Assembly: GCF_000023965.1 (NCBI RefSeq)
Contig: NC_013202.1
Location: 2,220,001-2,252,000 of the forward strand
Origin: Halomicrobium mukohataei DSM 12286
GTDB lineage: Archaea; Halobacteriota; Halobacteria; Halobacteriales; Haloarculaceae
Direction: 5' to 3'
Length of the DNA stretch: 32,000 nt
The position numbers were made by a program, and so were the translations under genes. This document shows, piece after piece, positions 2,701 to 26,372 of this stretch. How positions within the stretch are numbered: position 1 is the stretch's first letter; every line of letters begins with the position of its first letter. The notes beneath the pieces are model-generated. The model was not told where the DNA came from. It was given only the letters and a program-made list of their open reading frames with translations, and ran no database searches.

Positions 2701-3072
2701 ATGAACTCGCTTCCGGTCGACGGTGTGGCCCCGCTCGCGATCGGCGGGGCCGCGGTGCTCGTCTTGGCGTTCGTCGCGATCTGGTGGCGTCGACGCGGCT
2801 CCTCGGACCGCCGTCAGTCGAAGAAAGCCCACGAAGCCGCCCAGCAACGTGACCCTCCAGTAGAGATCGGAGAGACCTACGAGTTCGGTATCACGGACTT
2901 CAGCGAGCACCACTCCGGTGAAACGAACGCCGTCGGGAAAGTCGAGGGGTTCGTCCTCTTCGTCGAGGACATTCCGGACGGGCTCTCGGAGGGCGATATA
3001 ATCGAGGCGAAAGTGCTCTCGTTCAACGAGGGCCGGACCTCCGCCGACGCGCGGTTCGTCGAACGCCGCTGA
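2701..3072 (+). CDS. membrane-anchored TRAM-domain protein
   Basis: N-terminal hydrophobic helix (APLAIGGAAVLVLAFVAIWW), then PVEIGETYEFGITDF...GKVEGFVLFVEDIPDGLSEGDIIEAKVLSFNEG, matching the TRAM beta-barrel pattern as I recall it. TTATTT at 2671-2676 is about 25-30 nt upstream of the ATG. Confidence 0.8.
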   Translation: MNSLPVDGVAPLAIGGAAVLVLAFVAIWWRRRGSSDRRQSKKAHEAAQQRDPPVEIGETYEFGITDFSEHHSGETNAVGKVEGFVLFVEDIPDGLSEGDIIEAKVLSFNEGRTSADARFVERR

Positions 3073-3156
3073 TATAGTAACGATTGAAACGATTTACACA
3101 CCGATCGCACTGCCGTCGTGCGATCGGGTGTGCATTGATTTTCAATGGCTACTATA
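3073..3156. mobile_element. 84-nt imperfect palindrome (type A element, intact copy) starting on the base after the TRAM-gene TGA
   Basis: Left arm is TATAGTAACGATTGAAACGATTTACACACCGATCGCAC, loop is TGCCGTC, right arm is GTGCGATCGGGTGTGCATTGATTTTCAATGGCTACTATA. Outer arms are AT-rich and the inner stem is GC-rich. A diverged, interrupted second copy lies at 9148-9315. Confidence 0.7.
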
Positions 3157-3231
3157 CCGCCGCTCGATTCTCGGTGTCGGTGTTCGGAACGACCGGTAGA
3201 TTGCGCGACAGCGACGCGACTGGGGGACGTG

Positions 3232-3237
3232 AAAAAA
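3232..3237 (-). terminator. oligo-T run (T6 on the minus strand) about 22 nt downstream of the FKBP gene stop
   Basis: The minus strand reads TAA gtcgctccgatcactcaccctg TTTTTT cacg. Oligo-T is the usual archaeal termination signal. Confidence 0.4.
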
Positions 3238-3259
3238 CAGGGTGAGTGATCGGAGCGAC

Positions 3260-4222
3260 TTACTCGTCGGCCGCGCCTTCGACTTCTTCCATGATCTCCT
3301 CGGCGTCGACGTCGGCGTCCTCGAGCGCTTCCTCGATGTCAGCGCCGCCGGCACCGCCCATGCCGCCCATCATGCCGGGCATGCCCATGCCGCCACCGCC
3401 GAGCTCTTCCTGGACGATGATGCGGTCGATGTCGAGCAGCTGGGTGAGCTGCTGGGCGATCTGCTGTTTGCCCATCATCCACTGCTGGTTCATCGTCAGC
3501 TGGGGCGTCGCCTCGATGTAGAGCGTGTCCTTCTCGACCTCGACGGTCTCGGTCTCGGGTTCGGCGTCCTCGTCGTCCTCGTCGGACTCGACGAGCTGCT
3601 CTTCCTCGACGGTGTCGGTCTCGAACCACACGTCGAGCTCCATGTCGAGCATCATCGAGAGGATGCCCTGGGCCTGCTCTTCGCGGTCCTCGACCTCGCT
3701 GAGGACCTCGTAGTCGTACTCGATGTCCTCGCCGGCCAGCGGGTGGTTGAAGTCGACGCGTGCGCGGCCGCCGATGATCGTCTCGACGTGGCCGTGCTCG
3801 CCGTCGACGTCGACGTGTGCACCGGGGTAGCGGTCGTCTTCCGGGATCTTGTCGGCCGCGACGGTTCGGACCTCGCTCTCGTCGTACTCGCCGAAGGCCT
3901 CGGCCGCGGGGACGGTGACGGTGCCGGAGTGTCCGACTTCCTCACCGTACACGTCCTCTTCGACGGCCTCGAACAGGTGGCCCTGGCCGAGCACGATCGT
4001 TCGCGGTGCGAACTCCTGGTCCTCGCCGACGCCTTCCTCTTCTGCGACTTCCGGGTCCGTCGTGTCGACGAGGTCGCCGCCCTCGACGGTGCGTGCGGTG
4101 TAGGCCATCTCGACGAAGTCGCCCGCTTCGAAGCCCTGGGCTTCCTCTTCATCGGCCGCTGATTCTTCTGCGTCCTGCTCTTCGAGTTCTTCTTCCGCGT
4201 CGGCCTCGGATTCGTTGCTCAT
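3260..4222 (-). CDS. long-type FKBP peptidyl-prolyl cis-trans isomerase with acidic linkers and a Gly/Met-rich C-terminal tract
   Basis: GDFVEMAYTARTVEGGDLVDTT..., GQGHLFEAVEEDVYG and RVDFNHPLAGEDIEYDYEVL are typical FKBP/SlyD motifs. The C-terminal GGGGMGMPGMMGGMGGAGG tract is seen directly. Confidence 0.9.
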   Translation of the reverse strand: MSNESEADAEEELEEQDAEESAADEEEAQGFEAGDFVEMAYTARTVEGGDLVDTTDPEVAEEEGVGEDQEFAPRTIVLGQGHLFEAVEEDVYGEEVGHSGTVTVPAAEAFGEYDESEVRTVAADKIPEDDRYPGAHVDVDGEHGHVETIIGGRARVDFNHPLAGEDIEYDYEVLSEVEDREEQAQGILSMMLDMELDVWFETDTVEEEQLVESDEDDEDAEPETETVEVEKDTLYIEATPQLTMNQQWMMGKQQIAQQLTQLLDIDRIIVQEELGGGGMGMPGMMGGMGGAGGADIEEALEDADVDAEEIMEEVEGAADE

Positions 4223-4960: not shown

Positions 4961-6163
4961 ATGACAGATCGGAACATCCACGTGCAGCCGTCTTCTGGGC
5001 TGGCAGTCGAGGAACAGGGCGTCGAAATCGTCGAGCGAAAGGGAATCGGTCACCCGGACTCGATCTGTGACGGCGTCGCGGAGACGGTCTCGCGGGCCCT
5101 CGCACAGACGTACCTCGACCGCTTCGGAACGGTCCTGCACTACAACACCGACGAGAGCCAGCTCGTCGCCGGGACCGCCGCTCCGGCCTTCGGCGGCGGC
5201 GAGGTACTGGAGCCGATCTATCTGCTGATCGTCGGACGCGCGACCAAGTCCTACGAGGGCGAGCGCATTCCCGCGGAGACGATCGCGCTCGAAGCGGCCC
5301 GGGACTACCTGGAAGCGAACTTCCCGTATCTGGACGTCGGGACGGACATCGTCGTCGACGTTCGCCTCGGCGAGGGCAGCGGCGACCTCCAGGACGTGTT
5401 CGGCGACGAGGGCTCCGTGCCGATGGCCAACGACACGAGCTACGGCGTCGGGCACGCACCGCTCTCGGAAACCGAGCAGATCGTCAAGGCCACCGAGCAA
5501 CGGCTCAACGGCGAGTACTCCGTCGACCACCCGGAAGTCGGGCAGGACGTGAAGGTGATGGGCAAGCGCGAGGGCGACCACATCGACGTGACCGTCGCCG
5601 CGGCGATGGTGGATCGACACATCGAGGACCTCGAAGCGTACAAGGACGCCGTCGCCAGCGTCCGCCGATACGTCGAAGACCTCGCCACGGAGTTCACCGA
5701 TCGCACGGTGACGGTCCACGTCAACACCGCCGACGACTACGAAGAGGGGTCGATCTACCTGACGACGACCGGCACCTCCGCCGAGCAGGGCGACGACGGC
5801 TCCGTCGGCCGCGGCAACCGCGCGAACGGCCTGATCACTCCGAACCGACCGATGAGTATGGAGGCCACCTCCGGCAAGAACCCGGTCAACCACATCGGGA
5901 AGATCTACAACCTCCTCTCGACGGAGATCGCAAAGAGCGTCGTCGACGAGGTCGACGGCATCGAACAACTCCAGATCAGACTGCTCTCTCAGATCGGATC
6001 GCCGATCGACGAACCCCACGTCGCCGACGCCGAACTGGTCACCGAGGACGGCGTTACCGTCGCCGACATCGAAGACGAGGTCGAGGCCGCGATCGACGAC
6101 GAACTGGCCGACGTGACCAACGTCACCCGACGCGTCGTCGATGGGGAGCTGTCGACGTTCTAA
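4961..6163 (+). CDS. metK: archaeal-type S-adenosylmethionine synthetase
   Basis: 400 aa. [37 protein letters not shown] and [13 protein letters not shown] are typical of archaeal MAT. Confidence 0.95.
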
Positions 6164-6396: not shown

Positions 6397-7584
6397 ATGC
6401 ACCCGCCGGGAGCCGACATCGTCCTCGTTCGCCACGGCGAGATCGGGACCAAGAGCGAGCAGGTCCGTCGATCCATGGAGGAGCGGCTGGCGCGGAACCT
6501 CTCGGCCCTGCTCGCGGATCGCGGCGTCGACGGCTCCGTCGAGCGCGAACGGACGCGGCTGTTCGTCCACAGCGACGAGCCCAGCGCCGCCGTCGGGGCC
6601 GCGACAGACACCTTCGGCGTCGTCTCTGCCAGCGCTGCCGTCCGCACCGAGCCGACGCTCGACGCCATCTGTGAGGGGCTGGCAGCGATCGCGCGCGAGC
6701 GATTCGACGGTGGCACCTTCGCCGTCGACGCCCGCCGGGCGGGCCAGCAGTCCGCCCACGACTTCTCCAGCGAGGACATCGAGTCCGACGGCGGCGCTGC
6801 CGTGTGGGCCGCGATCGAAGCGGCGGGCGGCGATCCGGCGGTCGATCTCGACGAGCCGGACCTGACGTTCCACGTCGAGTGTCGTCGGGAGGTCGCGTAC
6901 CTGTTTCTCGACAAGCAGGCGGGTCCCGGCGGGCTTCCCGTCGGGACTCAAGAGCCCGTCGTCGTCTTGCTCTCCGGGGGAATCGACTCTCCCGTCGCGG
7001 CCTGGAAGCTGCTCAAGCGCGGCTGTCCCGTCGTGCCGGTGTACGTCGATCTCGGGGCGTACGGCGGTCCGGACCACCGCGCGCGAGCCCTCTCGACCGC
7101 CGAGACGCTCGCCAGCTACGTCCCGAACGTCGACCTCTCGGTGCGGGTCGCCGACGGAGGGGCCGTCGTGGAGCGGCTCGCAGACGAGCTGGACGCACGG
7201 CGGATGCTCGCCCTGCGGCGGTTCATGCTCGCCGTCGGGGCCCGGGTCGCCGAGCGTACCGACGCCGTCGGCGTGGCGACCGGCGAGGCGATCGGACAGA
7301 AGTCGAGCCAGACGAGCGCCAACCTCGCGGTGACGGACGTGGCCGTCGACTGTCCCGTCTTCCGGCCGAACCTGACCGCCGACAAGGCCGACATCACGCA
7401 GCTGGCCCGCGAGATCGGGACCTTCGAGGCGTCGACGATCCCGACCGGCTGTAACCGCGTCGCGCCGTCGCTGCCCGAGACGAACGCCGACCTGCACGCC
7501 GTCCGCGAACGCGAACCGGACGACCTGTTCGAGCGTGCGAGGGCCGTCGCTGACCGCGCCGAAGTCGTCGCCCTCGACCGCTGA
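6397..7584 (+). CDS. thiI: tRNA 4-thiouridine synthase ThiI (THUMP domain plus PP-loop ATPase)
   Basis: ADIVLVRHGEIGTKS start and PP-loop VVLLSGGIDSPVAAW. 395 aa. CCTTTATCG at 6367-6375 is upstream of the ATG. Confidence 0.9.
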   Translation: MHPPGADIVLVRHGEIGTKSEQVRRSMEERLARNLSALLADRGVDGSVERERTRLFVHSDEPSAAVGAATDTFGVVSASAAVRTEPTLDAICEGLAAIARERFDGGTFAVDARRAGQQSAHDFSSEDIESDGGAAVWAAIEAAGGDPAVDLDEPDLTFHVECRREVAYLFLDKQAGPGGLPVGTQEPVVVLLSGGIDSPVAAWKLLKRGCPVVPVYVDLGAYGGPDHRARALSTAETLASYVPNVDLSVRVADGGAVVERLADELDARRMLALRRFMLAVGARVAERTDAVGVATGEAIGQKSSQTSANLAVTDVAVDCPVFRPNLTADKADITQLAREIGTFEASTIPTGCNRVAPSLPETNADLHAVREREPDDLFERARAVADRAEVVALDR

Positions 7585-9147: not shown

Positions 9148-9315
9148 ACTGTCGCGGCCATCGAACGTCGATGCAGACCCGACCGCACGACGGCAGTGCG
9201 ATCGGTGTGTGAATCCGTTCATACGGAACGTTGTAGTTGCTTACCGGTGAGCGTCGCCACGGGGTAGACGCTCACCGGTAAATTCCTACAACCGTCCGTA
9301 TCAATCGCTACTGTA
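9148..9315. mobile_element. type A palindromic element, second copy, inverted relative to 3073-3156, diverged and interrupted by the type B element
   Basis: 9184-9210 is the exact reverse complement of 3096-3122 (27 nt). 9171-9210 versus 3096-3135 matches at 38/40. Weaker similarity continues to about 9148, and across the insertion to 9304-9315. Confidence 0.6.
9219..9303. mobile_element. type B palindromic element, copy 1 (79-nt palindrome 9222-9300 flanked by TCA...TCA, which is TGA on the cysK strand)
   Basis: TCA TACGGAACGTTGTAGTTGCTTACCGGTGAGCGTC GCCACGGGGTA GACGCTCACCGGTAAATTCCTACAACCGTCCGTA TCA. The right-hand TCA (9301-9303) is the cysK stop codon. Confidence 0.75.
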
Positions 9316-10227
9316 CTCGTCGAACATCCCCGTCGACATGTAGCGCTCGCCGCTGTCCCAGTAGACGGTCACGACGAGCGGGTCCGCGACGCCCTCGTCG
9401 AGCAACTCGGCGGCCTTCTCTCTGGCGGCGAGGTTCGACGCCCCGGAGGACTGGCCCACGAGGATCCCCTCCTCGCGCGCCAGCCGTCGGCACTCGGCTT
9501 CGGCGTCGGCGAGTTCGACCGTCGTCACCGAATCGAGCAGCTCCACGTCGAGGTTCGGGCTGACGAAGCCCGGCCCCATCCCCTGGAAGCTGTCCTCGCC
9601 GGTCCCGGGCTCCTGGCCCGAGAGGACGGCGTTGTCGGCCGGCTCGACGCCGACGATGTCCACGTCCGGGAACGCCTCGCGGAGCCGCCGGCCGACGCCG
9701 GTGACGGTCCCGCCCGTGCCGATGCCGGCGACGAACGCGTCGATGGTCCGGTCGCCGACCTGCTCGACGATCTCCGGCCCCGTCGTCTCGTAGTGTGCCC
9801 GGGGGTTGGCCTCGTTCTCGAACTGCCGGAGCTGGACGTACCCCTCTTCGGCTTCGAGTTCGTCGGCACGGTCCTTCGCTGCGGAGATGTCGCCGTCGAC
9901 GAGTTCGATCTCCGCGCCGTAGGCTGCCATTATCTGGCGGCGCTCGGGCGACTTCGAGCCCGGCATCACGAGGCGCACGTCGTACCCCTTGGCCGCGCCG
10001 GCCATCGCGAGCCCGATCCCCGTGTTGCCACTCGTCGGCTCGACGAGCGCGTCGCCCTCGGTCAGCTCGCCGGCCTCCTCGGCGGCCTCGATCATGAACC
10101 GCGCCGGTCGGTCCTTCGCGGAACCGCCGGGGTTGAACGACTCGACCTTGGCTGCGACCGTCGCTCCCTCGGGAGCCGCGACCGAGACGAGCGGCGACCC
10201 CAGCGTCTCCAGGATTGTCTCGTTCAT
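9301..10227 (-). CDS. cysK: cysteine synthase A (O-acetylserine sulfhydrylase), PLP-dependent
   Basis: SFNPGGSAKDR (PLP lysine), TSGNTGIGLA, GIGTGGT and GERYMSTGMF motifs. 308 aa. Confidence 0.93.
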   Translation of the reverse strand: MNETILETLGSPLVSVAAPEGATVAAKVESFNPGGSAKDRPARFMIEAAEEAGELTEGDALVEPTSGNTGIGLAMAGAAKGYDVRLVMPGSKSPERRQIMAAYGAEIELVDGDISAAKDRADELEAEEGYVQLRQFENEANPRAHYETTGPEIVEQVGDRTIDAFVAGIGTGGTVTGVGRRLREAFPDVDIVGVEPADNAVLSGQEPGTGEDSFQGMGPGFVSPNLDVELLDSVTTVELADAEAECRRLAREEGILVGQSSGASNLAAREKAAELLDEGVADPLVVTVYWDSGERYMSTGMFDEYSSD

Positions 10228-10299: not shown

Positions 10300-10384
10300 T
10301 GATACGGATTATTGTAGCGATTTACCGGTGATCGTCTACTCCGTGGCGACGATCACCGGTAAGCAACTACAATAAACCGTATGA
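10300..10384. mobile_element. type B palindromic element, copy 2 (79-nt palindrome 10303-10381 flanked by TGA...TGA), inverted relative to copy 1
   Basis: TGA TACGGATTATTGTAGCGATTTACCGGTGATCGTC TACTCCGTGGC GACGATCACCGGTAAGCAACTACAATAAACCGTA TGA. Its reverse complement matches 9219-9303 at 73/85 positions. Confidence 0.75.
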
Positions 10385-10426: not shown

Positions 10427-10810
10427 ATGCCACTGACAACGATGGAACCCAACCCCGTCTGGTCGGAGGGTGCCTACGAGGACACCGTCGACGTGCTGGC
10501 CGAGCACCGCGACGAACTGGTCTACAAGGTCTGGGGCGGCGACTGGTGCAAGGACTGCCGCTCGCAACTGCCCGACTTCGGCGCGGCGCTAGACGCCGCC
10601 GAGGTCCCCGAAGAGAACGTCGTCCACCACGAGACCGAGAAGGAAGACGACGGCTCGAAGACCGGCCCGGGCGTCGAGGAGTACGGGATCGAGTACATCC
10701 CGACCGTGGTGGTCGAACGCGACGGCGAGGAGATCGCACGCTTCGTCGAGGACGCCGACGTTCCGATTGCCGTCTCTCTCGCCGAGGAGATCCAGGCGGC
10801 ACTCGACTGA
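10427..10810 (+). CDS. thioredoxin-fold protein (CxxC = WCKDC)
   Basis: VWGGDWCKDCRSQLP and IEYIPTVVV fit a thioredoxin-like fold. An alternative start is M6 at 10442. Confidence 0.8.
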   Translation: MPLTTMEPNPVWSEGAYEDTVDVLAEHRDELVYKVWGGDWCKDCRSQLPDFGAALDAAEVPEENVVHHETEKEDDGSKTGPGVEEYGIEYIPTVVVERDGEEIARFVEDADVPIAVSLAEEIQAALD

Positions 10811-14181: not shown

Positions 14182-14294
14182 AGCCGACCGTCCGGGTGGC
14201 AGACGGGAAAGCCTGTCCGTCTCTGGGGTCGTCGATCCGCGTCCGAACGTGACCGGTGACACGATGTCTCTCGGTCGCACTGTCGCCCCACGAT

Positions 14295-14346
14295 CGGCTG
14301 TCGGTTGGCTTTCATGGCCGCTACAGTTTGGTCCGATCGATAGCCG
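14295..14346 (-). repeat. diverged relative of the type C palindrome arms
   Basis: CGGCTGTCG (14295-14303) pairs with CGATAGCCG (14338-14346) with one mismatch. CACGATCGGCTGTC (14289-14302) matches TACGATCGGCTGTC (11535-11548) at 13/14. Confidence 0.4.
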
Positions 14347-14447: not shown

Positions 14448-15485
14448 ATGAGTCCAACAGACGACGCGACCGACGAGAACGGCGTCGACCGACGACGCGT
14501 GCTGAAGACGATCGGAGCGGCGACCGCGGGGCTGCTCGCCGCCAGCGGCACTGCAGCGGCACACGAGGCCCAGTTCGAGGGCTGTGATCGCGTCTGTACG
14601 GGGACGGAGGGCAGTTTCGCCGTCGTCGCCGTCGACGGGAGCTTCACCTGTCGCCCGATGACGGCGACGAGCGGCGTCGACGTGCCCTGGAGCTGGCAGA
14701 GCTACTGTTACGAGGCGTCGGCCGACGAGGCGATCGTCGGGCTGCTCGAAGAGAACGTCGTCCGGGGCGGAACTACCGATTCGAGCGGCTCGTGTAGCCT
14801 GTGTGTTAACCCCAACGACTGCGCCGCGTCGGCCTACGACAGCGTCGACGATATCGTGGCGGCCCTGGACCAGAACGACGCCTGTGGCGTGTGCGCAGGA
14901 CACGTCGAGGCAGGGGGCGACTGTACGACGTACGCGGTCGACGGCGACAGCGGCAGCGACGGCAGTGGCGGATCGGACGGCGACGACACCGATGGCGGCA
15001 GCGACGGCGGCGACGGCGATGGGAGTGACGAGACGGACGGCAGTGAGACGGGCGACGATAGCTCGGACGGAGACGACCCAGACGGCGGTGGTGTGGACGA
15101 TGGCGACGAGGACGACGGAGACGATGGCGGCGGTGACGACGGTGGTGCGGACGATGGCGACGGGAGCGATGACAATAATGACGACAATGACGACGGAGAC
15201 GATGGCGGCGGTGACGACTACGATACGAACCAGCACTACTCGGACGACCGAGAGCTCTGGCGCAGCGACCTCGTGGACGACGGCTCGGACGACGGCCCGG
15301 CGTGGGAGTGTGAGAACACGACCGAGAACCCGACCGCGATGGAGTTGTGGTACGATCGAGACGACACGCCGGTCGATCCCGCGGACAGAGAACGTTGCGG
15401 GTCGGGAACCGACGAGGACGACGGCCTGCTGACGGCGATGCAGCGGTGGCTCGCTCGCGACGACACGCCCGACAGCCTGGACTGA
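14448..15485 (+). CDS. Tat-secreted cysteine-rich protein with an Asp/Gly/Ser low-complexity tract of about 100 aa
   Basis: Tat signal DRRRVLKTIGAATAGLLAASGTAAA. 12 Cys residues, 10 of them in the first roughly 165 aa. Acidic tract from about 14940 to 15234. The C-terminal region repeats W-x-x-RDDTP. Confidence 0.8.
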   Translation: MSPTDDATDENGVDRRRVLKTIGAATAGLLAASGTAAAHEAQFEGCDRVCTGTEGSFAVVAVDGSFTCRPMTATSGVDVPWSWQSYCYEASADEAIVGLLEENVVRGGTTDSSGSCSLCVNPNDCAASAYDSVDDIVAALDQNDACGVCAGHVEAGGDCTTYAVDGDSGSDGSGGSDGDDTDGGSDGGDGDGSDETDGSETGDDSSDGDDPDGGGVDDGDEDDGDDGGGDDGGADDGDGSDDNNDDNDDGDDGGGDDYDTNQHYSDDRELWRSDLVDDGSDDGPAWECENTTENPTAMELWYDRDDTPVDPADRERCGSGTDEDDGLLTAMQRWLARDDTPDSLD

Positions 15486-24850: not shown

Positions 24851-24931
24851 CAGCTCGTACTGCCCCGTCTCCGTATCGTTCCACGGGACGGAGACGCTCG
24901 CCGGTACGTTCCGACGACCGTCCGTATACTC
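24851..24931. repeat. decayed type B element relic
   Basis: 24881-24929 aligns to 9257-9303 with 39 identities and one 2-nt gap, including ACCGTCCGTAT, CCGGTA and GACGCTC. A residual 9-bp hairpin remains, CGTCTCCGT / ACGGAGACG. Confidence 0.5.
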
Positions 24932-24962: not shown

Positions 24963-26372
24963 TCAGGCCGGACGGATCCGGACCAGTCGATCGTCGTCGT
25001 CGCGCGGGAACGGTCCGTTCGCGCGGCCGTCACGGTTCGACGTGATCGCGTAGAGATCGCCCTCCGGTCCCTGTTCGACGTGGCGGACACGGCCGAGTTC
25101 CTCGCTCAGGAGCCCGCTGGTCCCGGCCCGGTAGTCGGCGTCGTACCACGAGGCATCGTGGCGTCGCTCGTGTCCGTCTGCGGGCTGTGGCCCGTCGGCG
25201 GGCGTGATCGTCGCGGCCGTGACTCGCTGACTGATCAGGCCACCGAACACGAACCGGTTCCGCAGGCTCGGAACGCTCTCGCCGGTGTAGAACACGCCCC
25301 CGGCCGGGGCCCACGACGAGGCGTCCGCGACCGGCGACTGGAACTCGGTCTCTGGGTATCGCTCGTGATCGCCGCTGTTCCGGACCACTGGCCAGCCGTA
25401 GTCGACGCCCGGCCTGAGGACGTTGAGCTCGTCTCCAGCGCCGGGTCCGTGCTCGGTGATTATCGGGGTCCCGTCCGGGAGCCAGTCGATACCCTGGGGG
25501 TTCCGGTGGCCGTAGGTGAACACGCGCGGGTCGGCGTCCGACGTGCTGTCGGGGTTGTCCGGTGGTGGCGACCCGTCGGGCCGAACGCGGAGGACTTTCC
25601 CGGCCAGGGAGGCGGGGTCTCTCGTCTGTTCCGTGTGTTCGAGTCCGGGATCGGCGTCGCCGGTCGTAATCCACAGGTAGTCGGCCGGTCCGAACGCGAT
25701 CCGACCGCCGTTGTGGTAGGTGTCGGCCGGGATCTCGTCGACGACCGGGACGACAGTCTCGTCGGGAGCTGGTGCGCTGGCGTCGAAGGCGACCACCCGA
25801 TTGCGCTTCCCCTCGCTCGTCTCGGCCGTGTAGTAGACGTAGACGACCGGCGGATCCGGATACGACGGGTGGGCGGCGACGCCGAGCAGACCGCCTTCTC
25901 CGCCGGTGAGCCGCCACCGACTCTCGTCGGAGCCCGCCTCGATCGCGGCTGCGTCGATGATGTCGGACGGCTCGGCGACCGTCCGCAGCGTCCCGCTGTC
26001 GAACTCGGTGATACGGCCGGTCCGCTCTGTCACGAACAGCGTGTCTTCGCCCGCAAACGAGAGGTCCCAGGGCACTTCGAGCCCGGTCGCCAGCACCTCC
26101 GCGGTGTACTCCTCTCGGGGCGAGTCGCTCGGCGGTTCCCAGTCGGGATCGTAGCGGTCCCACTCTGTGAGCTCGTGGGTCACCGAGAGATCGTATCCGA
26201 GCGCCGCGGGGCCGGCCGGCGTGTCGGTACCGCCCTCGCTCGTCGTTCGAGTGCCGTCGTTCGGATTCGATCCCGTACAACCGGCGACGAGGCCGACGCC
26301 GACGATCGCACCGCTCCGTCGGAGAAACCGACGGCGACTGATCCCCCTGCTGCTGGCTCGATTGCCACCCAT
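24963..26372 (-). CDS. PQQ-dependent sugar (glucose/sorbosone) dehydrogenase, Tat lipoprotein
   Basis: SRRRFLRRSGAIVGVGLVAGC signal. YHNGGRIAFGP, FTYGHRNPQG and DELNVLRPGVDYGWP are beta-propeller motifs. Confidence 0.9.
   Translation of the reverse strand: MGGNRASSRGISRRRFLRRSGAIVGVGLVAGCTGSNPNDGTRTTSEGGTDTPAGPAALGYDLSVTHELTEWDRYDPDWEPPSDSPREEYTAEVLATGLEVPWDLSFAGEDTLFVTERTGRITEFDSGTLRTVAEPSDIIDAAAIEAGSDESRWRLTGGEGGLLGVAAHPSYPDPPVVYVYYTAETSEGKRNRVVAFDASAPAPDETVVPVVDEIPADTYHNGGRIAFGPADYLWITTGDADPGLEHTEQTRDPASLAGKVLRVRPDGSPPPDNPDSTSDADPRVFTYGHRNPQGIDWLPDGTPIITEHGPGAGDELNVLRPGVDYGWPVVRNSGDHERYPETEFQSPVADASSWAPAGGVFYTGESVPSLRNRFVFGGLISQRVTAATITPADGPQPADGHERRHDASWYDADYRAGTSGLLSEELGRVRHVEQGPEGDLYAITSNRDGRANGPFPRDDDDRLVRIRPA

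Follow-up and report, generated by a model that had tools for sequence, protein, structure and literature searches.

MITEs (miniature transposable elements with inverted repeats) of the IS630/Tc1-mariner type, which duplicate TA, include Sulfolobus SM1 (~80 bp), Stowaway, and the Correia elements of Neisseria. Other elements duplicate 3 bp: members of the IS1031 group of the IS5 family target TNA and are flanked exclusively by a 3-bp repeat, TGA in the cited case (PMC12016507), and the duplication of mPing, which is mobilized by PIF/Harbinger, is TTA (PMC2836001). In the haloarchaeon Haloquadratum walsbyi, MITEs, palindrome-associated transposable elements (PATEs), and small mobile repeats (HqIRS) are abundant, transposase-free, and inserted in a strain-specific manner; some of the small mobile repeats have no known mobilizing enzyme, one is only 80 bp long, and mobile elements of this species show a strong tendency to insert into other mobile elements (PMC3119063). 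A precedent for palindromic repeats inside genes comes from enterobacteria (PMC2759123). Here, we describe two families of small palindromic elements that meet at the 3' end of cysK, a cysteine synthase gene, in a 32,000-nt stretch of the Halomicrobium mukohataei DSM 12286 chromosome (NC_013202.1, positions 2,220,001 to 2,252,000; G+C, ~67%), which we refer to as the window and within which all positions are given unless another sequence is named. A 79-nt "inner" element interrupts an older, 84-nt "outer" element, and in our judgment both are very probably non-autonomous foldback-type MITEs with terminal inverted repeats (TIRs) and no coding capacity, presumably mobilized in trans by DDE-type transposases.

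On the sense (minus) strand of cysK, the sequence around the stop codon reads GAG TAC AGT AGC GAT TGA, followed by the 79-nt inner element (TACGG...CCGTA), a second TGA, and ACGGATTCACACACCGATCGCAC, exactly as described in a first-pass annotation made from the sequence alone. That annotation proposed that a mobile, noncoding 79-nt hairpin had landed at a TGA within an older hairpin, an uninterrupted relative of which lies elsewhere in the window. The alignments on which it drew were reproduced: 3096-3122 matches the reverse complement of 9184-9210 at all 27 nt, 3096-3135 and 9171-9210 agree at 38 of 40 bases, and the flanks joined after removal of 79+3 nt align to 3076-3135 across the junction (90% identity over 60 nt; blastn E=7e-16). 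The joined flanks match practically all of the 84-nt element without a gap at the junction, the one gap (GA-TA / GAGTA) being located at the far left; the outer-family profile matches 9157-9222 (E=4e-15). The left part of the outer copy lies at 9301-9315 (TA + CAGTAGCGATTGA) and its right part at 9150-9218; its TA duplication survives as TA at 9314-9315 and CA at 9150-9151, and the ancestral TAG stop has left its third base as the G at 9149. The outer element contains the final four sense codons of cysK (Y-S-S-D) together with the TGA stop. Further copies, matching flanks, and empty sites, all set out below, confirm the nested elements at cysK and support the nested-insertion interpretation.

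The intact outer copy lies directly 3' of the TGA stop of the open reading frame (ORF) at 2701-3072, and its internal TGA at 3085-3087 is the unoccupied counterpart of the insertion site at cysK. The window CysK is identical to the H. mukohataei proteins ACV48422.1, QCD66830.1, and QFR21640.1, and the locus is present in GCA_009217585.1. Coordinates of the elements and of their occupied and unoccupied targets are collected in Table 1. The second inner copy, the half-copy at 24881-24926, and the three unoccupied targets had escaped the first-pass annotation.

Table 1. Positions of cysK, of inner- and outer-family elements, and of inner-family target sites in the window.
Feature	Position	Strand	Basis
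cysK, pyridoxal phosphate-dependent cysteine synthase, 308 aa	9301..10227	-	Translation, Pfam PALP match
Inner 79-nt foldback element (very probable MITE), GAGCGTC-stem subfamily, TIRs TACGG.../...CCGTA	9222..9300	-	Sequence, family copies, hairpin z=-7.3
Left 3-bp target duplication TGA, now the cysK stop codon	9301..9303	-	Sequence and family-wide TGA/TGA statistics
Right 3-bp target duplication TGA	9219..9221	-	Sequence
Old, diverged outer 84-nt palindromic element (very probable MITE), split by the inner element	9150..9315	-	Alignment to intact copy, profile match, orthologous loci
Intact outer copy (very probable MITE), TA|TAGTAAC...GCTACTA|TA	3073..3156	+	Sequence, fold, profile match E=2e-30
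Second full inner-family copy, GATCGTC-stem subfamily	10303..10381	+	Sequence; 73 nt upstream of the cysK start codon
Unoccupied inner target, TGA stop of ORF 10427-10810	10808..10810	+	Occupied in H. katesii (L055 2657-2734)
Unoccupied inner target, TCA on + strand = TGA stop of ORF 24963-26372(-)	24963..24965	-	Occupied in H. katesii (L039 690-770)
Unoccupied inner target, TTA on + strand = TAA stop of ORF 3260-4222(-)	3260..3262	-	H. katesii copy flanked TTA/TTA
Truncated, decayed inner-family half-copy	24881..24926	-	Profile match E=2e-4; also in H. katesii
Degenerate outer-like palindrome, weak call	14257..14323	+	nhmmer E=0.0095

Orthologous loci lacking one or both elements place the two insertions in order. 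At the element-free loci of H. salinisoli and of two metagenome relatives whose CysK proteins are 88-90% identical (together L076, L083, and L084), the gene reads GAG or GAC and then TAG. Two loci carry only the outer element (L205 and L075): in Halomicrobium sp. LC1Hm it lies directly at GAG TAG, with the TAG stop kept and no inner element, and in H. urmianum an uninterrupted outer-family element with a different core occupies the same position. Both elements are present in H. katesii, whose CysK is also 308 aa and has HSSD at the codons matching YSSD. Among the best 120 CysK homologues, 77 end in ...STGMFD, the closest end in MFDE, MFDD, or MFEE, and the protein of H. urmianum (YNRD) is the only one extended by four residues as the window protein is.

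Because the CysK proteins of other strains stop after ...MFD(E/D), the outer element must be the source of both the YSSD tail and the TGA stop, as the first-pass annotation had proposed, except that the TA of the Tyr codon is a remnant of the ancestral TAG stop, which forms part of the TA duplication of the outer element. The outer element thus preceded the inner one, and the C-terminal tail of CysK came from it. The individual steps are as follows: the ancestral gene ended ...MFDE-TAG; before H. mukohataei, H. katesii, and LC1Hm diverged, the outer element entered the TA of that stop; on the branch shared by H. mukohataei and H. katesii, the stop triplet following Glu turned into a sense codon (TAC or CAC), so that four codons were read into the element as far as its TGA; and the inner element finally entered that internal TGA. 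Since the TGA is duplicated on inner insertion, the stop codon was left intact.

The inner element belongs to a large family of 78-80 nt whose members share the ends TACGGnnnnTTGTAR....TTACCGG and their complement. When a strict central-stem pattern was run on single genomes representing each prokaryotic species, 62 stretches were detected in H. katesii DSM 19301 and 5 in the metagenome-assembled genome of a related member of the Halobacteriales, together with three chance bacterial matches; in all, H. katesii has at least 70 copies. We scored the flanks of 77 copies, 75 from these two genomes and 2 from the window. Flanks were TGA/TGA in 33, TCA/TCA (which is TGA/TGA read on the other strand) in 28, and TTA/TTA in 1, with no TGA/TCA mixture; the remaining copies were truncated or had flanks that differed by single bases. 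Approximately 80-88% of inner-family copies have identical TGA/TGA or TCA/TCA flanks, and the prediction of further copies with such flanks was borne out.

A looser end pattern applied to hypersaline metagenomes yielded at least 98 scorable elements of 78-80 nt with at least 89 different central parts, and flanks were identical in 86 of these elements (46 TCA, 39 TGA, and 1 TTA). Plasmids of Natrinema, Halomontanus, and a Natrialbaceae strain carry related elements that share these ends and are flanked by TGA or TCA, and scans of a viral collection with the core of each element, inner or outer, gave 0 matches. The preferred target, G-A-C|TGA|G-a-C, emerged from each of two independent data sets and holds outside stop codons as well, and its consensus, G.C-T.A-G.C, is partly symmetric.

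Filled and empty sites in close relatives reveal both that the inner family is mobile and that it duplicates 3 bp. Where H. katesii and the window are syntenic, their identity is 95-98%, and three sites that are filled in H. katesii have a single triplet in the window (TGA at 10808-10810, TCA at 24963-24965, and TTA at 3260-3262). The second inner copy of the window, upstream of cysK, is bounded by TGA at 10300-10302 and 10382-10384 (+ strand); the site is empty in LC1Hm, where the flanks are otherwise identical and from which the window segment differs by exactly 82 additional nucleotides, and it is also empty in a European Nucleotide Archive contig (L084). On the plasmid of H. mukohataei JP60, a copy at 113134 corresponds to an empty site with a single TGA on the homologous LC1Hm plasmid. 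All five precise filled/empty pairs between close strains show a 3-bp duplication.

Three further properties bear on how the element inserts. First, the TTA/TTA-flanked copy of H. katesii and a second, independent one in a metagenome contig are otherwise ordinary in sequence, which shows that the flanking triplet is a copy of the target and was not brought in with the element. Second, using a position-6 mismatch linked to an internal bubble as an orientation marker, we found whole elements oriented 19:22 relative to the TGA strand, i.e., at random. Third, the ends are true inverted repeats. Together, the empty sites, TTA/TTA copies, random orientation, and target context favor insertion into duplex DNA with a 3-bp stagger, that is, DDE-type insertion.

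In LC1Hm, no inner-family copy was found at the two cysK sites, in the initial 100 kb of the plasmid, or, by PLSDB blastn, on that plasmid, the chromosome being unscanned; the same 100 kb (L210+L211) contains three outer-family copies. The expansion of the inner family thus appears to postdate the divergence of the mukohataei/katesii line from LC1Hm.

Several arrangements of inner-family copies were observed in H. katesii. Head-to-tail copies sharing one TGA occur at L036 (~5087-5170) and L072 (~7120-7205), so the element junction (GTA TGA) can itself be a target. A third inner-type family has the same ends and a core (GACCGCACGCCGTCGTGCGGTC) resembling that of the outer family (L066 4042-4200 and L021 3630-3790), which suggests modular exchange between families; the L066 and L021 composites, which are almost the same in sequence, may each have moved as one unit. 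A superoxide dismutase gene (sod) lies between two truncated inner-family copies at L063 3430-4795, and the junction ...GTTCTATGACACCCTC from this locus also abuts truncated copies in L024 and L054; the bracketing may have arisen when sod paralogues were duplicated or rearranged in association with the elements.

The outer element is 84 nt long including both TA copies (TA|TAGTAAC...GCTACTA|TA), and most canonical copies are bounded by TATAG...CTATA. At least 15 copies are present in the H. katesii loci examined and 6 on the JP60 plasmid, and the family matches 61 plasmid records from >15 haloarchaeal genera with up to 94% identity. In one filled/empty pair, the copy at JP60 plasmid 106384-106467 is matched in LC1Hm by a site with a single TA, from which we conclude that the outer family duplicates TA, like IS630/Tc1-mariner-type elements. 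The TGA in the left arm is occupied in three other H. katesii outer copies, by two further inner subfamilies. Either there were at least three independent inner insertions at this TGA, or, alternatively, some composites were remobilized as units.

The three insertions that are present in H. katesii and missing from the window all lie on stop codons of window ORFs. To count such sites more widely, a criterion of open frames of at least 100 codons proved unsuitable since it over-counts genes in GC-rich DNA (one such spurious frame runs antisense to cysK and ends at 10302), and the count was redone with a filter based on G+C content at third codon positions. With this filter, gene stops account for 33 of 64 occupied TGA sites, compared with 2.7% of all other TGA triplets and 10-18% of other TGAs in the preferred context. 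Active sensing of stop codons is weakened as an explanation, given that context lifts the share from 2.7% to 10-18% and that purifying selection can explain the rest; the excess can be explained by sequence preference together with the removal of intragenic insertions, and sensing is not required. For an element that duplicates TNA, insertion at TGA or TAA is silent, which provides a simple rule for pile-up at the 3' ends of genes in GC-rich genomes.

Both elements fold over their full length into hairpins far more stable than those of shuffled sequence (z = -6 to -8). Across 34 distinct inner copies, 96% of cells are paired, and the arms covary between subfamilies (pair 9-71, AU in 21 and GC in 12; pair 30-50, UA in 22 and GC in 11), while distant relatives have wholly different yet still paired centers. 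At the orthologous inner copy beside cysK, the 11-nt loop is inverted between identical arms (GCCACGGGGTA in the window, 9256-9266, versus TACCTCGTGGC in H. katesii L055), which implies that the loop flipped in place; family-wide, loop orientation is roughly independent of arm orientation. Flipping probably arose by template switching or recombination within the palindrome.

Both families are short, noncoding, and multicopy, have TIRs and a fixed-length duplication, and are polymorphic between close genomes, in keeping with MITEs. We infer the enzyme class of both. For the inner family, an IS5/IS1031- or PIF/Harbinger-like DDE enzyme would make a staggered 3-bp cut at T-N-A in double-stranded DNA and duplicate the triplet, nearly always TGA/TCA; for the outer family, an IS630/Tc1-mariner-like DDE enzyme would insert at TA and duplicate it.

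Like the IS1031 group and PIF/Harbinger elements, the inner family has TIRs and an exclusive 3-bp T-N-A duplication, and like Tourist-type MITEs such as mPing, it is short, noncoding, and present in many copies. The PIF target, CWCTTAGWG, resembles that of the inner family in having C at -1 and G at +1. Unlike those groups, however, the inner family has G/C rather than A/T at the central target base, and its whole 79-nt length is one hairpin with a variable, compensated center. The outer family resembles IS630/Tc1-mariner-type MITEs in its length of ~80 nt, TIRs, TA duplication, many copies, and mostly intergenic or gene-end positions; it differs in its spread across >15 haloarchaeal genera at up to 94% identity. 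The small mobile repeats of H. walsbyi, in contrast, do not duplicate their target and have no sequence relation to the elements described here. Like Rickettsia palindromic elements and enterobacterial RU/ERIC-type repeats in genes, the outer element is a small mobile palindrome that gave codons to a host protein, but unlike an in-frame internal insertion, it extended the cysK C terminus by displacing the stop (four residues plus the stop).

A number of observations weigh against mobilization in trans by DDE transposases of these groups. No autonomous partner with matching ends was found in the ~1.5 Mb examined or in the plasmid collection, complete chromosomes being unscanned. In 560 kb of H. 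katesii loci, ORFs of 180 aa or longer were compared all against all and none proved to be multicopy, 707 kb of metagenome contigs held no autonomous element with matching ends, and the JP60 plasmid annotation lists as transposase-type genes only one TnpB and one IS1595 transposase. Starts of GA or GG are typical of IS5 family ends. Inner-family ends start TACGG, whereas the cited IS1031-group element starts GAACC (PMC12016507). The target consensus is not fully palindromic, with A at both -2 and +2 and a stronger left side, and the TGA of the outer element was used by three inner subfamilies despite its poor target context. Furthermore, the center of the inner element is highly variable between lineages yet self-complementary, which a transposase that recognizes only the ends does not explain. 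With no partner transposase found in these searches, membership of the inner family in the IS1031/PIF group is tentative.

An IS5-family gene was likewise not seen in the loci examined or on plasmids, with the chromosome unsearched, and an unannotated 37.6-43.5 kb stretch of the JP60 plasmid contained no convincing ORFs. Candidate autonomous elements were rejected on inspection. Unpaired ends in L010, L036, and L063 are truncated copies beside thiC/biotin-type genes and sod, and the metagenome loci contain a single long end-pair (L115, 1612 nt), which consists of a half-copy, a moaA-like gene, and a full copy.

Of the other explanations that we considered, one treats the inner elements as a pan-haloarchaeal foldback superfamily of ~80 nt with an unrecognized hairpin-dependent mechanism, a "safe-haven" specificity for the gene end GAC-TGA, and variants generated by snap-back copying. 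We regard this as rather unlikely. If true, the hairpin-dependent mechanism would explain both the self-complementary, hypervariable center and the unseen partner insertion sequence; the specificity would have evolved for the typical haloarchaeal gene end, where insertion regenerates the stop codon; and snap-back copying of one end together with adjacent DNA would give rise to new family variants.

The first-pass annotation had offered two mechanisms for the TGA/TGA flanks, a 3-bp duplication or an IS200/IS605-like insertion 3' of a fixed target by an element that ends in the same triplet, and only the former stood. Insertion of a single-stranded hairpin element of the IS200/IS605-PATE or REP/RAYT kind (repetitive extragenic palindromes and their associated tyrosine transposases) 3' of TGA, with no duplication and with TGA as the element's own 3' end, is improbable. 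IS200/IS605 insertion is strand and orientation specific, whereas the inner family is oriented at random, and at the TTA targets of the two TTA/TTA copies the right triplet is evidently copied from the target. The strong hairpin formed by the whole inner element would suit such a mechanism, as would a center that remains paired despite sequence variation (which fits folded-strand recognition) and a target preference that is stronger to the left of TGA. A TnpB gene is present on an H. mukohataei plasmid, and haloarchaea are rich in IS605-type elements and PATEs, but PATEs lack the true TIRs of the inner element (PMC3119063), and the target duplication seen in the TTA/TTA copies and empty sites also separates the two. 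REPs, for their part, are hairpins 20-40 nt long that form BIME-type clusters, compared with 79-84 nt for the dispersed single copies with duplications described here.

We consider it highly improbable that the inner element moves as a circle by means of a site-specific recombinase, in which case the junction CCGTA-TGA-TACGG would be the core site and TGA the crossover overlap, with no staggered-cut duplication. Joined ends would make a near-perfect palindrome around an asymmetric 3-bp core, and the very high specificity for one triplet and the failure to find a transposase would both be accounted for; however, a mismatched overlap would be required for the TTA/TTA copies, insertion at an asymmetric core would take place in one orientation to the target rather than at 19:22, and no recombinase gene is associated with the elements. 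That the region is instead a conserved, structured 3' untranslated region or terminator of cysK has a negligible chance of being correct: strong hairpins do lie directly 3' of the stop codon, and the region is conserved between H. mukohataei and H. katesii, but both elements are missing from close orthologous loci (and the inner one alone from LC1Hm), empty sites that refute this explanation, and the same sequences occur at dozens of unrelated loci with strain-specific presence.

Four core motifs of the elements had no match in the searchable literature, and, with no published description found for either family, we regard them as two new MITE families of a kind already known. The type of event recorded at cysK is real and well documented but ordinary. 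The locus provides a clean, fully reconstructed case in which small mobile palindromes reshaped the 3' end of a gene of core metabolism, displacing the stop and adding four residues, after which a second element settled on the new stop and left the protein unchanged. More unusual are the duplication of TGA almost exclusively, the frequent use of stop codons, the variable but compensated center, and the missing transposase; a comparison of H. mukohataei with LC1Hm could reveal the transposase of the inner family. Masking both families would help the annotation of 3' ends and small ORFs, and both are good strain markers.

Elsewhere in the window, the spacer at 3061-3260, between the ORFs at 2701-3072 and 3260-4222, has been replaced relative to H. 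katesii (L023 2851-3005). The window has the outer element here, and the rearranged H. katesii spacer lacks the outer copy of 3073-3156 and has an inner-family copy on the TAA stop; the C terminus of the upstream ORF reads ...ERR* in H. mukohataei and ...GRK* in H. katesii. H. katesii also has a canonical outer copy in the same spacer as the weak palindrome at 14257-14323, and comparison of the window spacer at 14223-14330 with H. katesii yielded no empty site for the outer family. Rfam (at gathering thresholds) and tRNA scans of the window gave no matches. A 345-aa protein with no Pfam match on record (window 14448-15485, equivalent to L001 4743-5780) includes an Asp/Gly-rich, low-complexity stretch encoded by GAC/GGC-rich, imperfect 15-nt repeats at 14949-15218.

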